From an uncultured Clostridium sp. (GTDB taxonomy: Bacteria; Bacillota; Clostridia; TANB77; CAG-508): a stretch of DNA of 64,000 nucleotides. Position numbers and translations under genes: made by a program. Below are positions 9,905 to 52,945 of the stretch, piece after piece (positions within the stretch are counted from its first letter, which is position 1; each line of letters opens with the position of its first letter). The stretch lies in contig CAMJCT010000004.1 in assembly GCA_946404215.1 (NCBI GenBank), positions 22,847-86,846 of the forward strand. The letters are read 5' to 3'. Below the pieces are notes generated by a model that was given only the letters and a program-made list of their open reading frames with translations, made no database searches and had not been told where the DNA came from.

Positions 9905-11866
9905 ATGGAAAATAAATATTTAAATGAAGCAATAATTGGAAATAAAAGTATGCTTGCAACATATACAGGGAAAGGAGAGCTAGAAAGATTATACTTCCCT
10001 AGCAAGGATAATAGACAATACATTGATTTTTTTCATGCAGGTGTAAAAATAAATAATTCCGATTTGATTTATTTACATGATGATATAAACAACATATATA
10101 AACAATACTATGAGTTAGACACAAATATTTTAAATACAGAAGTGACAAATACATATTTTAATTTGAAGATATTGCAAACTGACTTTATTTTAGTAAAAGA
10201 AAATGTTTTAGTGAAGAAATACACGTTTGTTAATGACGGAAAAATAGATTTAAATACAAGTTTTTATATACATTCCGGATTATTATCAGATATAAATAAT
10301 CATGTAGGTTGTAAAATAATAGATGGAGGAATGCTACAATACTCACATGATTTTATTGTAGCCACATTTGAAAAAGACAGAGATATCTCAAGACATCAAA
10401 TTAATGGAAGTAAAGAAACAATAAAAAGAGGGGAAATATACGACAAAGATTATATAGGAATGTCAAGTGAATCAAGTGTTTGCTATGACTTAGGTATTAT
10501 AAAGCCACAAGAGAAGAAAAAAATAGAAATATGTGTGCTAATAGGAGAAAATAAAAATATTTCACAAATTGAATCCGAAATTGAAAGAATAAAAAAGATT
10601 GACTTAAATAAAGAATATTCAAATACAAAAAATTATTGGAGAAAGTATGTAAAAGCACACAACGGTTTAAATTTAAAAGAACCTCAAAATAGTTATGAAG
10701 AACAAATATATGAAATTTACAGAAGAAGTATATTATTATTTCCATTGTTAACTAATCAAGAGACAGGTGGAATTATAGCTTCTCCTGAAATTGATGAAAA
10801 TTTTACAAAATGTGGTAGATATGCATATTGCTGGCCAAGAGATGCAGTATTTATAACAAAAGCTTTAGATATTTTACAAATGGAAAAAGAAACAGAAAAA
10901 TTTTATAAAGATTTTTGCAAAAAGACACAGAGTAAAAATGGAATGTGGGAGCAGAGATTTTATACAGATGGAAAACTAGCTCCATGCTGGGGGTATCAGA
11001 TAGATGAAACAGCAAGTGTAGTATATGGAGTATATGAACATTATAAATACACAAAATCCGAAAAGTTTTTAAAAGAAAATCTACAAATGTGTGAAAAAGC
11101 GGTGGATTTTTTGAAAAAATATGTAAAAGATTGGCTTGGAATTGAAGATAAAGATGAAAGAGAAAAGGATAAAGTACAAGAAGAAATTGAAAAAAGTGTA
11201 AATAGGCAAGGTCATAAATATCATGTCAGCTATGATTTGTGGGAAATGAATGAAGGAATTCATTTATATTCTATAGCTAGTATATATAGTGCTTTTGAAT
11301 GTATATTACAAATATATAGAATACTTGGGGATAAGGTATCTGACTTTGAAAATAATAGATTAAAAGAGGAAAAAATCAACAAGAATAAAAAAGCTCTAGA
11401 AAGATTGCAAACCCAAATAAAAAAATATATAAATGATAATCTGTATGATGAGGAAAGAAAGACATATTTTAGAAATACAGAGGATAAAAAAATGGATATT
11501 AGTATATTAGGTGCGGTTACTCCATTTAATGTATTTAAACCAAAAGAAAACAAAGTAAAAAATACAGTAGAAAATATAAATATGAGAATAAGAACATATA
11601 CAGGAGGGTATCAAAGATTTGAAGATGATCATTATATGAATGGAAATCCATGGCCAATAGCAAATCTTTGGATGACACTATACTATTTAGAATCTGGCGA
11701 AAAAAGAAAAGCAAAAGAAGCATTTGATTTTGTTGTGAAAACAGCAGGAAAACATCATTTCTTAGGAGAGCAAATAGATAATAGTACATTAAAGCCAAAC
11801 TGGGTTATAGGACTTGGGTGGTCACATGCAATGTTTATAATAGTGCTTGAAAAACTTTATGGATAG
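9905..11866 (+). CDS. glycoside hydrolase family 15 (glucoamylase/glucodextranase-like) protein
   Basis: 653 aa. GGIIASPE...YAYCWPRDA (the GH15 WPRD motif)...GMWEQRFYTDG...GYQRFEDDHYMNGNPWPIANLW is the (alpha/alpha)6 barrel signature. Confidence 0.6.
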   Translation: MENKYLNEAIIGNKSMLATYTGKGELERLYFPSKDNRQYIDFFHAGVKINNSDLIYLHDDINNIYKQYYELDTNILNTEVTNTYFNLKILQTDFILVKENVLVKKYTFVNDGKIDLNTSFYIHSGLLSDINNHVGCKIIDGGMLQYSHDFIVATFEKDRDISRHQINGSKETIKRGEIYDKDYIGMSSESSVCYDLGIIKPQEKKKIEICVLIGENKNISQIESEIERIKKIDLNKEYSNTKNYWRKYVKAHNGLNLKEPQNSYEEQIYEIYRRSILLFPLLTNQETGGIIASPEIDENFTKCGRYAYCWPRDAVFITKALDILQMEKETEKFYKDFCKKTQSKNGMWEQRFYTDGKLAPCWGYQIDETASVVYGVYEHYKYTKSEKFLKENLQMCEKAVDFLKKYVKDWLGIEDKDEREKDKVQEEIEKSVNRQGHKYHVSYDLWEMNEGIHLYSIASIYSAFECILQIYRILGDKVSDFENNRLKEEKINKNKKALERLQTQIKKYINDNLYDEERKTYFRNTEDKKMDISILGAVTPFNVFKPKENKVKNTVENINMRIRTYTGGYQRFEDDHYMNGNPWPIANLWMTLYYLESGEKRKAKEAFDFVVKTAGKHHFLGEQIDNSTLKPNWVIGLGWSHAMFIIVLEKLYG

Positions 11867-11892
11867 TGGTCCGTCCCCTTGGCAATAATATG

Positions 11893-11977: not shown

Positions 11978-13000
<1,023 letters not shown>

Positions 13001-13020
13001 CAAAGAGAAATATTTAAGTA

Positions 13021-13049
13021 AAAAGAATACCTAAAAAGTATTCTTTTTA
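13021..13049 (+). terminator. Rho-independent terminator after gap
   Basis: aaaagaatac-ctaaaaa-gtattctttt followed by tat. Confidence 0.6.
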
Positions 13050-13115
13050 TAGAATATAATAAAACAAAATTAAAACAAATTATAATAAGAAAAAACACTA
13101 AGGAGGAATTATATT

Positions 13116-13484
13116 GTGAAAGATAATCAAAAAGGTATAACTATAATAGCTTTGGTAATTACTATTGTATTATTATTAATAATATCTGGAATAGCAATAG
13201 GGAGAATTAAAGGAAACAATGGAATTCTAAACGAGAGCAAACAGACAGTTTCAAATACAGAAAGAGAGTCTGCTATAACAAAAGTAATGGCAGAGGTATA
13301 TAAAAGTCGTTCAAGCGATGGAACAATTAATATTAATAAATTAAATAATTATTTATCAAAAATACAAAAATTAAAGTTCAATGGTGGAAACATAACAGAT
13401 AGTAACAAAATTGTGGAATTACCAGCAAATATAGAGGTAAATGAATATAGAATTACTATAAATGAAGATGGAAGTGTGGAGTAA
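13116..13484 (+). CDS. small protein with a pilin-like (prepilin-type) N-terminal hydrophobic segment
   Basis: GTG start 9 nt after AGGAGG. MKDNQKGITIIALVITIVLLLIISGIAIG resembles a class III signal/pilin N-terminus but lacks Glu5. Paralogous to the N-terminus of the gene at 28225. Confidence 0.45.
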   Translation: MKDNQKGITIIALVITIVLLLIISGIAIGRIKGNNGILNESKQTVSNTERESAITKVMAEVYKSRSSDGTININKLNNYLSKIQKLKFNGGNITDSNKIVELPANIEVNEYRITINEDGSVE

Positions 13485-13751
13485 GTTACTGTTCAGTCTT
13501 AAAATTAGAATTGTTCTGCTTAAACGTGATTACTATCTAAATATTTTTCGAATAATCTCGGCTTCCTTGCATTAAACACTAAAAAAATCTAACTAATTTC
13601 GAAAGCACCCTCAAAGATGAACTTTGAGATTCCCTTTCGAAATTACCAAGATTTTTTAAGTTATTTCAAGTCGCATTCGATTAATTCTCAAAATAGTAAT
13701 CACTTAACTAAGGACTTCTAATTAAATATGACTGAACAGTAACTGGAGTAA
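13476..13751. mobile_element. MITE-like non-autonomous element (259 bp) with 15-bp terminal inverted repeats and an 8-bp target-site duplication
   Basis: TSD TGGAGTAA at 13476-13483 and 13744-13751. TIRs AGTTACTGTTCAGTC (13484-13498) and GACTGAACAGTAACT (13730-13743). No ORF inside. Internal modules recur at 35598-35783, 57381-57440 and 63905-64000. The left TIR recurs alone at 52828-52849. Confidence 0.65.
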
Positions 13752-13860
13752 AAAAGAAAACCAAAAGAATGCTTGAAAAGTATTCTTTTTTGGTATAGAA
13801 TGGTATCGTATCAAAAATATGGTAAATACTAAATATAAATAAAGTTTAGGAGGAAATAAT

Positions 13861-15045
13861 ATGAATAAAAAAACAATTAAAGACATTGATTTGAAGGGAA
13901 AGAAGGTACTTGTAAGATGCGATTTTAATGTACCGATGGATGAAGAAAGAAACATTACAGATAATACAAGAATAGTTGCAGCTTTACCAACTATTAATTA
14001 TTTAATAGAAAACGAATGTAGTATAATTTTATGCTCACACTTAGGAAGACCTAAAGGAGAGGTTAAAGAAGAGTTTTCACTAAAACCAGTTGCAAAAGAG
14101 TTATCTAAATTATTAAACAAAGAAGTGATAATGGCAAAAGATGTTATAGGAGAAGATGCTAAAACAAAAGCAAATAATTTACAAAAAGGTCAAATAATGT
14201 TACTAGAAAACGTAAGATTTCATAGAGAGGAAACAGACAATGATCCTGAATTTGCAAAACAATTAGCAGAAATGGCAGAGCTATACGTAAATGATGCATT
14301 TGGTGCTGCACATAGAGCACATAGTTCAACAGCAGGAGTAGCACAATATTTACCAGCTGTATCAGGATTTTTGATAGAAAAAGAATTGGAATTCTTAGGA
14401 AACGCAATTACAAATCCACAAAGACCATTTGTAGCGATACTTGGAGGAGCAAAAGTATCAGATAAAATAGGAGTAATAGACAGTTTGCTTGAAAAAGTAG
14501 ATACATTAATAATAGGTGGAGGAATGGCATATACATTCTTTAAGGCACAAGGATATGAAGTCGGAAATTCAATATGCGAATTAGACAAATTAGATTTAGC
14601 AAATAGTTTAATAAAAAAAGCCAAAGAAAAAGGTGTAAAATTCATGCTTCCAGTGGATACAAAAATAGGAAAAGAATTTAAACCAGACACAGAAAGCAAA
14701 ACTGTAAAATATACAGAGATACCATCAGATTGGGAAGGTTTTGACATAGGAGAAGAAACAATTAAGATGTTTGCAGAAGAAATAAGAAAAGCAAAAACTG
14801 TAGTATGGAATGGTCCAGTAGGATTATTTGAATTTGATCAATTTGCTGTAGGAACAAATTCAATTGCTAAAGTATTATCAGAAATAGATGCAACAACAAT
14901 AATAGGAGGAGGAGATTCAGCAGCAGCAGTAAAAAAAGCAGGTTTAGAGGACAAAATGACACATATTTCAACAGGAGGAGGAGCATCACTTGAATTCTTG
15001 GAAGGAAAGAAATTACCAGGTATAGAGTGTCTTTTAGATAAATAA
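13861..15045 (+). CDS. pgk: phosphoglycerate kinase
   Basis: [10 protein letters not shown]...MAKDVIGED...[12 protein letters not shown] are canonical PGK motifs. 394 aa. Confidence 0.9.
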
Positions 15046-15052
15046 TGCTCTT

Positions 15053-15085
15053 GGGTGTTTTTGGGGACACCTTCCAAAAACATCC
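15053..15085. repeat. GGACACCTTCCAAAAACA palindromic repeat unit (hairpin) after pgk
   Basis: gggtgtttttggggacaccttccaaaaacatcc. Stem tgtttttgg/ccaaaaaca. Same motif as 15754-15800 and 45601-45690. Confidence 0.6.
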
Positions 15086-15169: not shown

Positions 15170-15748
15170 ATGAGAAATAATTATAATATGGAATTATTAG
15201 ATGTGTTAGATGAACAAGGTAATAAAATAGGTGTAGAAGAAAGAAAAATAGTTCATGAAAAAGGTCTTTGGCATATTCATGTAGGGGTATGGATAATGAA
15301 TCAGAATGGAGAGCTTTTATTACAACAAAGATCAGGAGCTAAGAAGGTAAATCCGTATAAATGGACTCGTACAGGAGGACATGTAGATAGTGGTGAAATT
15401 CCAATAGATGGAATACAAAGAGAAGTTGAAGAGGAAATAGGCGTAAAAATTTCAAAAGACGATTTTGAACCTATGGGGATAGAGAAGATTGAAAAAGTAA
15501 ATAGTAATCAAAATATTATAAATAGAAATTATGTATATAGTTATTTTGCATTTGTTAAATATAAGTTAGAAGATTATAAAATACAAGAAGAGGAAGTTTG
15601 TAACTTGAAATATATGTCCATAGAAGAAATAGAAGAAGCAATGGAAAATCAAGACGAAAACTATACATTTCTATTTTGGAAAACAGAAAAATTTAAAAAG
15701 ACTATAAGTTTTTTGAAAAGCAAAAGAAAAAGTCTTTTGAATAATTAG
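15170..15748 (+). CDS. Nudix hydrolase
   Basis: Nudix box GGHVDSGEIPIDGIQREVEEEIGV. The start may be the internal ATG at 15188. Confidence 0.6.
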   Translation: MRNNYNMELLDVLDEQGNKIGVEERKIVHEKGLWHIHVGVWIMNQNGELLLQQRSGAKKVNPYKWTRTGGHVDSGEIPIDGIQREVEEEIGVKISKDDFEPMGIEKIEKVNSNQNIINRNYVYSYFAFVKYKLEDYKIQEEEVCNLKYMSIEEIEEAMENQDENYTFLFWKTEKFKKTISFLKSKRKSLLNN

Positions 15749-15753
15749 ATGCT

Positions 15754-15800
15754 TTTGGAAGGTGTCCCCCAAAACACCAAAAACACCCCAAAATTTGAAA
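15754..15800. repeat. GGACACCTTCCAAAA repeat unit (reverse orientation) between the Nudix gene and tpiA
   Basis: ttttggaaggtgtcccccaaaacaccaaaaacaccccaaaa. Confidence 0.55.
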
Positions 15801-44957: not shown

Positions 44958-45613
44958 AAGTATCAACATCTATTTTATCAATAAAAGAAGAAAATGCAAC
45001 TGAAGATTTTTTAAAGTTAGAAACTTCCAAAACAGATTATTTTCATATAGATGTAATGGATGGTAAATTTGTAGAAAAAAATACATATGAAAAGATGCTA
45101 CAATATACATCATATATAAAAAGAATATCAAATTTACCATTGGATATTCATCTAATGGTAGAAGATATAAAAACAGCAATAGATGATTTTATATCAGTAG
45201 AGCCCAATATAATAACATTTCATTATGAAGCATGCAAAAACAAAGAAGAAGTATATGACATAATAAATTATATAAAAGAAAATAATTGTAGAGTAGGAAT
45301 ATCAGTAAAGCCAAATACAGAAATAGAGGAAATATATGAATTTCTCCCATATGTACATATATGTTTAGTAATGACTGTAGAACCTGGAAAAGGAGGACAA
45401 ACACTACTAACAGAAATGATACATAAAATAGAAAAATTAAAAAAATATATAACTGAAAATAACATTGAAATTGAAATAGAAGCAGATGGAGGAATTAATT
45501 TAAAAACAGCACCAGAAATAAAAAAAGCTGGAACAAATATATTAGTATCTGGAACAGCTATATTAAAGGCTCAAAATTATAAAGAAATAATAGACGAATT
45601 GAGGGTGATTTAA
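44951..45613 (+). CDS. rpe: ribulose-phosphate 3-epimerase
   Basis: ILSIKEENATEDFLKLE... should be read with the full sequence: ...SILS...FHIDVMDGKFV...LDIHLMV...VEPGKGGQ...ADGGIN. The last 4 codons lie inside the downstream palindrome. Confidence 0.8.
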   Translation: MVEVSTSILSIKEENATEDFLKLETSKTDYFHIDVMDGKFVEKNTYEKMLQYTSYIKRISNLPLDIHLMVEDIKTAIDDFISVEPNIITFHYEACKNKEEVYDIINYIKENNCRVGISVKPNTEIEEIYEFLPYVHICLVMTVEPGKGGQTLLTEMIHKIEKLKKYITENNIEIEIEADGGINLKTAPEIKKAGTNILVSGTAILKAQNYKEIIDELRVI

Positions 45614-45690
45614 GGGACACCTTCCAAAAACACCTTGAGTGATTAATCACTCAAGGTGTTTTTGGAAGGTGTCCCTTAAATCACCCTATT
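45601..45690. repeat. 88-bp near-perfect palindrome (GGACACCTTCCAAAAACACC family) between the convergent rpe and DUF4097-like genes
   Basis: gagggtgatttaagggacaccttccaaaaacaccttgagtgattaatcactcaaggtgtttttggaaggtgtcccttaaatcaccct. The 70-bp core is perfect. It spans both stop codons. Confidence 0.8.
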
Positions 45691-51974: not shown

Positions 51975-52052
51975 AGGAAAATTAGTAATTTCTTAAATTA
52001 TTTTCCAAACAAAATATTAGCCATTTTACAAATCAAGAAAGGAATGATTTTT

Positions 52053-52829
52053 ATGAAAGTTTTAACACTAAAAAAGAAAAGCATTTTAAAAACAGCAATA
52101 GTTATTATATTTACATTAACAGTATTTACTTTTTCAACATCTTTAGGAATGCAACATTATTACAATACAGGATTTTCAACAGGTTTAGTTACAGCAACTA
52201 CTTTAAATGTAAGAAGCGGACCAGGTATACAATATAAAGTAGTAGCAACAGTTAATAAAAATGAATATATAAGAGTGTTTGCAGGAATAGGAGACTGGTA
52301 TATTGTTCAAGTAGAAGGAGATTATGTGGGAGCTGTAAGTAAAAAATATATAAAACCAATTTATCCAAATGCAACAAATACAGGAGGAATAACAAGTGTA
52401 AATACATCTAATAGTAACTCAAACAACAATACAGTTTCAAGTAGTATGAATGCAGACGAAAAAGAAGTGTTTGATTTAATAAATAAACAAAGAACTAATA
52501 ATGGACTTCAGCCATTAAAAGTAGATGAAGAAGTTCAAAAAGTTGCAAGAATTAAAGCACAAGATATGGTGCAGAATAATTATTTTTCACATGAATCACC
52601 AACATATGGTTCACCATTTGATATGTTAAAAAGTTTTAAGGTTTCGTATAGAACTGCTGGAGAAAATATTGCAGCAAATTCAAGTAATAGTGGAGCTGTA
52701 ACAGCATGGATGAACTCTTCTGGACATAAAGCAAATATTTTAAATAGTAATTTTAACTATACCGGAATAGGAGTAGTAAGTAGCTCTAAATATGGGAAAA
52801 TATTTGTACAACAGTTTATTGGTAAATAG
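52053..52829 (+). CDS. secreted SH3b-domain plus CAP/SCP (YkwD-like) domain protein
   Basis: Signal peptide, SH3_3-like (ATTLNVRSGPG...DWYIV...), C-terminal CAP domain (NYFSHESP...GENIA...GHKANIL). The stop codon abuts a solo MITE TIR. Confidence 0.65.
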   Translation: MKVLTLKKKSILKTAIVIIFTLTVFTFSTSLGMQHYYNTGFSTGLVTATTLNVRSGPGIQYKVVATVNKNEYIRVFAGIGDWYIVQVEGDYVGAVSKKYIKPIYPNATNTGGITSVNTSNSNSNNNTVSSSMNADEKEVFDLINKQRTNNGLQPLKVDEEVQKVARIKAQDMVQNNYFSHESPTYGSPFDMLKSFKVSYRTAGENIAANSSNSGAVTAWMNSSGHKANILNSNFNYTGIGVVSSSKYGKIFVQQFIGK

Positions 52830-52849
52830 TTACTGTTCAGTCTTAAAAT
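52828..52849. repeat. solo copy of the MITE left terminal repeat (AGTTACTGTTCAGTCTTAAAAT)
   Basis: 22/22 identical to 13484-13505. No matching right end nearby. Confidence 0.6.
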
Positions 52850-52945
52850 ATAGAAAAAAATATTTTACAAAACATTGAAACCCAAAATTCGATGTGATAG
52901 AATATGAAAGGAAAAACGAAGTAATGCTAAAATGGAGGAGTAATC

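Follow-up and report, generated by a model that had tools for sequence, protein, structure and literature searches.

A probable 259-bp MITE with an 8-bp target-site duplication at the 3' end of a pilin-like gene in an uncultured Clostridium sp.

What the palindrome between a pilin-like gene and pgk is, how it came to lie there, and what its arrival did to a gene whose stop codon it touches are the questions raised by this locus of an uncultured Clostridium sp. In the window, by which we mean the whole stretch of 64,000 nucleotides analyzed here, the genes follow one another as gap (11996-13000), a 122-aa pilin-like ORF, the element, pgk (13861-15045), a NUDIX gene, and tpiA. Using a computational approach, we conclude that positions 13485-13743 are very likely a miniature inverted-repeat transposable element (MITE) of 259 bp, derived from an insertion sequence and without coding capacity, that inserted just 3' of the stop codon of the pilin-like gene. 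The site is composed of the following parts:

13116-13484, + strand: upstream 122-aa pilin-like gene, whose product has a weak N-terminal methylation motif of the prepilin type; the insertion leaves the coding sequence as it was
13477-13484, no strand assigned: left copy of the target-site duplication, TGGAGTAA, an exact 8-mer holding the upstream gene's last sense codon and TAA
13485-13743, no strand assigned: body of the probable MITE, 259 bp, 29% G+C, an end-to-end imperfect hairpin without a credible ORF
13485-13498, + strand: left terminal inverted repeat, GTTACTGTTCAGTC, 14 bp, perfect
13583-13679, no strand assigned: central module of ∼97 nt, with 85% identity to 63906-64000 (local alignment z = 35.6)
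13730-13743, − strand: right terminal inverted repeat, GACTGAACAGTAAC, the reverse complement of GTTACTGTTCAGTC at 14/14 positions; the boundary after GTAAC is backed by the flank of contig L002
13744-13751, no strand assigned: right copy of the target-site duplication, TGGAGTAA, an exact 8-mer, placed by BLAST breakpoints
13763-13801, + strand: native hairpin (13763-13790) overlapping a promoter-like TTGAAA-17-TAGAAT before pgk; the sequence is kept in the empty site

The boundaries of the element can be set to the nucleotide. Read from left to right, the window has ...GAAGTGTGGAGTAA followed directly by GTTACTGTTCAGTC, which opens the 259 bp, and GACTGAACAGTAAC, which closes them, followed directly by TGGAGTAAAAAAG...; the two junctions thus read ...GTGGAGTAAGTTACTG... 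and ...CAGTAACTGGAGTAA.... The preliminary description of this DNA had placed the start of the feature at 13476 and given it terminal repeats of 15 bp (AGTTACTG.../...CAGTAACT), and both values need correction by one: the feature starts at 13477, and the perfect repeat is 14 bp because the 15-bp version counts the flanking base of the duplication twice, using again the last A of its left copy and the first T of its right copy. In the same way, the repeat stretches to 18 nt at 94% solely when bases overlapping the duplication are counted. The partition into 8 plus 14 bp is fixed independently by (i) the empty site in a sister species; (ii) the right flank of a conspecific contig (L002), which starts after ...GTAAC; and (iii) a relative of the element on sister-species contig L040, in which AATAGTAT precedes GTTAC at one end and follows GTAAC at the other. 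Matches to GTTACTGTTCAGTC with at most 2 mismatches occur 4 times in the window compared to 0.29 expected, a number reached in 0/100 shuffles, and the chance of identity between two adjacent 8-mers is ∼6e-5 in sequence of 28.5% G+C, as estimated from base composition.

The strongest evidence for an insertion comes from the sister species, in which the site can be seen unoccupied. Six contigs from six samples (L040 to L045), all of one sister species and 87 to 94% identical in nucleotide sequence to the window across the neighboring genes, have the syntenic order gap/pilin-like/pgk/NUDIX/tpi/gpmI with a pilin-to-pgk spacer of 110 nt, compared to 377 nt in the window; the difference of 267 nt equals 259+8. 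These contigs carry a single TGGAGTAA, the site reading GTGGAGTAAAAAATAAAAC or, in longer context, ...GTGGAGTAAAAAATAAAACTGAAAGAATACTTG.... In the BLAST alignment, window position 13484 corresponds to L040 position 10369 and window position 13744 to L040 position 10362, such that both flanks fall on the same 8 bp (10362-10369), which demonstrates an insertion with an 8-bp target duplication. This is the comparison with an empty site in relatives that had been asked for beforehand, and it upheld the reading of the locus as a complete MITE with an 8-bp target-site duplication, in line with the exact 8-bp repeat and the inverted repeats.

The duplication and the terminal repeats point to mobilization in trans, most likely by a DDE-type transposase with an 8-bp stagger. 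Acting in trans, this enzyme would bind both 14-bp terminal repeats GTTACTGTTCAGTC and cut the strands of the target TGGAGTAA, which comprises the last codon and stop of the pilin-like gene, with an offset of 8 bp; gap repair would then duplicate these 8 bp.

The position of the target within a gene raises the question of what the insertion changed for the host. The upstream gene (13116-13484) indeed ends ...GAG TAA inside the left copy of the duplication, as had been described, and TAA is thus contained in that copy; the further claim that the duplicated copy gives the gene its stop codon does not hold, since the stop belongs to the pre-existing target and the empty site reads GTGGAGTAA. A functional role of the element in supplying the stop codon was rejected for the same reason, the empty site already ending GAG TAA. 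As the insertion duplicated a stop codon native to the target, the pilin-like gene is unchanged. The Pfam N_methyl model matches the 122-aa ORF at E = 6.5e-4, below the curated cut-off, and orthologues with 57 to 58% identity occupy the same gap-X-pgk position. On the other side of the element, the insertion moved the native hairpin/promoter-like module 267 bp away from the upstream stop codon and left the module intact. With the ORF and its stop unchanged and the promoter-like module intact, the consequences for the host look small. The 3' UTR of a transcript reading through from the pilin-like gene would be predicted to form a very stable hairpin.

Several features of the neighborhood deserve mention in their own right. 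The hairpins that follow gap (13020-13047) and the MITE (13763-13790) are two copies, 82% similar, of a single terminator-like module, followed by TATAGAAT. The pilin-like gene (13116-13484) and its counterpart at L040 10001-10369 are 57% identical in amino acids and 72.7% in nucleotides, compared to 90 to 91% nucleotide identity for the neighbors gap and pgk, and the last ∼45 nt of the gene together with the downstream spacer are near-identical between the sister species. The gap-to-pilin spacer is ∼185 nt longer in L040 and L046, both of the sister species (L040 9763-9985 compared to window 13061-13100); it contains several short palindromes and possibly a further small insertion. A second pilin-like N-terminus (KGITLIALVVTIIVLLILAGVAI...) lies at ∼28250-28400 in the window, with an apparent early stop just before a 532-aa ORF (28433-30031) that could not be annotated.

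The element itself is palindromic over its full length and forms a single long hairpin. Its RNA fold has a predicted energy of −81.6 kcal/mol on the + strand and −88.2 kcal/mol on the − strand (z of −11.7 and −11.0), its DNA fold one of −48.4 kcal/mol (z of −9.8), and a hairpin with 28-nt arms occupies the center (13578-13661). The preliminary description had found no ORF in it, and our analysis agrees: the overlapping ORFs are only 34 to 37 aa long, and the longest stop-free translation, of 42 aa, has no relative among the 5.8e9 or 1.8e9 proteins of two protein libraries. Rfam gave no family match in the element stretch at E ≤ 1, nor anywhere in the window at gathering score, and returned only sub-threshold noise (rox1 and STnc420).

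These properties place the element among known MITEs. Bacterial MITEs are ∼50 to 600 bp long, have lost the transposase gene, and are moved in trans by a parental element (PMC6382973). At 259 bp and 29% G+C, the window element falls within the expected size range (∼50 to 600 bp), is AT-rich, and is bounded by terminal inverted repeats; it has no internal transposase gene, it has related copies at other loci, and its duplication can be shown against an unoccupied site, TGGAGTAA being present twice in the window and once in the six sister-species contigs. A useful point of comparison is MITEAba12 from Acinetobacter, which is 113 bp long, generates 9-bp duplications, and has a perfect 16-bp terminal repeat in common with ISAba12 (PMC6382973). 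Both elements are small, AT-rich, and non-coding, with terminal inverted repeats, a duplication of fixed length, and an AT-rich intergenic site, and both families include decayed copies that lack a duplication. Unlike MITEAba12, the window element is 259 bp long, has an 8-bp duplication, is fully palindromic, and has no known parent insertion sequence.

Intergenic, hairpin-forming, non-autonomous repeats also include the Correia elements of Neisseria, RUP of Streptococcus pneumoniae, and ERIC/IRU of the enterobacteria, which are often cotranscribed with their neighbors and can influence the processing or the stability of the mRNA. For Correia and RUP the duplication is a TA dinucleotide; ERIC lacks a regular one. 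Their sequences are unrelated to that of the window element, and none of them was matched in the Rfam scans. A Correia/RUP type of element (IS630-like, with a TA target) was ruled out by the 8-bp duplications of two independent elements, and a REP/BIME or IS200/IS605-type palindrome by the presence of terminal inverted repeats together with an 8-bp duplication. The element is best regarded as a well-documented yet ordinary MITE.

An 8-bp duplication had been taken to indicate an ISL3/IS256/IS1595-like parent, and the duplication in the window agrees with this without discriminating between families. Duplications of 8 bp are made by ISL3, IS256, and IS1595 and also by IS6, IS66/ISBst12, and IS1. 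The likeness to these six families is limited to the 8-bp duplication and to short terminal repeats of the size bound by such transposases. The typical terminal start of ISL3, IS256, IS1595, and IS6 is GG, whereas GTTACTGTTCAGTC starts with GT; IS66 ends are GTAA, to which the GTTAC of the window element is near but not equal.

The autonomous parent was not found among the scanned window ORFs, GTDB representatives, JGI metagenomes, IMG/VR, plasmids, or phages. In the window, a Pfam scan of three minus-strand and seven other ORFs detected no transposase, which amounts to a spot check of the earlier statement that the window contains no cognate one. An 18-nt terminal-repeat pattern had one chance match in 185,579 GTDB representative genomes, inside a coding region of a Saccharofermentans MAG, and 30 matches in JGI metagenome contigs plus 4 in IMG/VR, none of which extended beyond 18 to 25 nt. 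A degenerate terminal-repeat pattern and a core pattern gave chance matches or none in IMG/VR, BLASTN with the element as query found no match in plasmid or phage collections, and a search of the literature for the terminal repeat as a string yielded unrelated primers only. Exact-protein look-ups with pgk, tgt, the CAP-domain ORF, and the last ORF, made to reach sequence beyond the window or orthologous sites, found none on record.

Related sequences at other loci show that the element is not alone. One of them is a 203-bp foldback at L040:3760-3962, bounded by terminal repeats GTTACTGGTCAGCC/GGCTGACTAGTAAC and flanked by an 8-bp duplication of its own, AATAGTAT. A subterminal part of ∼65 nt on the left of the window element is homologous to one end of this relative, and alignment of the ends shows that both of the distinct subterminal end types of the window element are kept in it; we conclude from the conservation of both end types that the two elements share an ancestor whose left and right ends already differed. 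Two further loci in the window are needed for what follows:

52829-52855, + strand: solo left-end fragment of ∼27 nt (28 nt at 96%; nhmmer E = 0.012), without a right end
63906-64000, + strand: incomplete and diverged copy of the central module, truncated at the end of the window

Neither a right end nor a duplication is visible at the solo left end. A possible solo end at 27776-27793 was treated as a chance match (3 mismatches; nhmmer E = 0.88). Within the window species, contig L002 has the same left flank and a copy of the element that is 96% identical with an 8-bp indel, yet it runs from ...GTAAC straight into the 5' region of secA and not into TGGAGTAA-pgk. The secA junction could represent a second copy or a chimera created by an assembler jump between copies, and even a chimeric contig implies a second copy of the element somewhere; the SecA N-terminus of L002, used as a query for a second locus, recovered only fragments of at most 80% identity from other species. 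Two short contigs (L003 and L004) stop inside the element, as expected at a repeat that breaks assemblies. It had been proposed that the MITE reading would fall if there were no other copies and the identity of the flanking 8-mers were coincidental, and this is contradicted by the relative with its own duplication, the fragments, and the empty site.

The ends and the center of the element have different relatives. The center of L040:3760-3962 differs, and the central module is not common to the two elements. The module copy at 63906-64000, in turn, has no GTTACTG-type end upstream of it, and it is weakly related (z = 8.5) to the center of 35584-35797. The family thus consists of conserved ends with exchangeable palindromic centers. 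Because the center of the element occurs at loci without these ends, a simple internal deletion of one insertion sequence does not account for its origin; the modular arrangement may come from nested insertion, from recombination, or from deletions of a parent that differed between elements. Two observations belong to these loci: the module copy at 63906-64000 is preceded by a separate hairpin with 41-nt arms (63815-63910), and 35584-35797 is a 214-nt palindromic intergenic element with 44-nt arms that are 84% complementary, in which a motif on the right side (GGTTATGCTAA..) is directly repeated.

These comparisons bear on the alternative that the element is a composite, in which MITE ends enclose a palindromic module of ∼100 nt from another repeat family, acquired by nested insertion or recombination and not left over by deletion of a parent insertion sequence. 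We hold this to be possible, if the less probable course. It would account for the ends (∼65 nt on the left and ∼55 nt on the right) matching the L040 element (z = 12) while the center does not, for the 85% match (z = 35.6) of the center to a locus without an upstream GTTACTG end, and for the z of 8.5 between 63906-64000 and 35584-35797. However, we identified no internal duplication or internal terminal repeat of the kind that a nested insertion would leave, the window end truncates the copy at 63906-64000 and hides its right end, and the window element compared to 35584-35797 is not significant by itself. Moreover, different deletions of one parent can also give related MITEs variable interiors.

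A seventh contig of the sister species bears on the age of the insertion. L046 is 98.27% identical to L040 over 4,453 nt with one gap, and this only gap is a stretch of 25 nt in L046 at the insertion site, consisting of TGGAGTAA + TATTACTGAACTGTAAC + GGAGAAAT, that is, 17 nt of the element's right end and a decayed second copy of the duplication, in the same orientation as the window copy. This remnant suggests an insertion that predates the split of the two species and was followed by decay in one lineage and by loss in another, favored by the palindromic structure, and the insertion is thus probably old. Loss between direct repeats that flank a long palindrome is a known route.

Alternatively, the site could be a hot spot, with the window element and the L046 remnant representing independent insertions into the same TGGAGTAA, directed by sequence or structure near a stop codon and terminator. 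The site is polymorphic within the sister species, with the remnant in L046 compared to six empty contigs at 98.3% identity, stop codons directly adjoin several of the ends (window 13484, window 52829, and L040 6890), and the duplication and terminal repeats of the window copy are perfect despite a divergence of ∼10% between the species. On the other hand, the remnant has the same orientation, with a right-type end ...ATA beside the right copy of the duplication, and its repeat is nearer to the window type (..GTTCAGT.) than to that of the sister species' own element (..GTCAGCC). The duplication copy and repeat of the remnant are also decayed at ∼5/25 positions, which fits age and not a recent event, and the 8-mers flanking the ends (TGGAGTAA, AATAGTAT, GGTAAATA, TAAAATTT, and GAATTATT) have no consensus beyond AT-richness. 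We therefore consider a hot spot unlikely; the shared orientation and window-type repeat of the remnant favor a single ancestral insertion.

A more far-reaching proposal is that the family is moved by an undescribed transposase and lands preferentially at the 3' boundaries of genes, or persists only there. Four observed ends abut or overlap stop codons, in one of them the first base of the repeat completes TAG, one and the same 8-bp target is filled in both species (window element and L046 remnant), and the terminal repeat is absent from the 185,579 representative genomes. On this view, the exchangeable centers could constitute a separate mobile or functional module. We nevertheless give this proposal little credence. 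As to the individual ends, the TAG stop of the CAP/SH3-domain ORF at 52044-52829 is made of TA from the flank and the first G of the solo left end's repeat. In L040, a solo right end of ∼58 nt (6889-6946) directly adjoins the TAA stop of a gene for a hydrolase that has an unusual, basic C-terminal tail, and two tandem tRNA-Gly(TCC) genes come after it.

Finally, a native structured element (a 3' UTR hairpin, regulatory RNA, or REP-like palindrome) with coincidentally identical 8-mers is extremely improbable: the exceptionally stable fold on both strands and the richness of the window in other intergenic palindromes would suit it, but the empty site is shorter by exactly 259+8 bp with both flanks on one 8-mer, a different 8-bp duplication flanks the relative at an unrelated locus, the stem of the 63906-64000 copy is broken by non-compensatory changes, and Rfam has no match.

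For an uncultured, low-G+C, gut-type bacterium, the value of the probable MITE lies in having the filled, empty, and remnant states of one site all in hand. The element can serve to mark strains or species and to aid annotation, and it explains why contigs break at this site. The insertion leaves gene content as it was and does not call for a new mechanism.

More broadly, several families of palindromic repeats reside in the intergenic DNA of this lineage. At 9736-9890, between two genes, lies a palindrome of 155 nt whose 52-nt arms are 96% complementary, and a conspecific contig (L039, 231-293) has a similar palindromic insertion of 61 nt at window position ∼11868-11870 that is absent from the window. 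A perfect 86-nt palindrome at 45602-45687 is built from a GGGACACCTTCCAAAAACA-type hairpin, and hairpins of the same type bracket the NUDIX gene between pgk and tpiA (15051-15084 and 15748-15781), which looks like a REP-like family.
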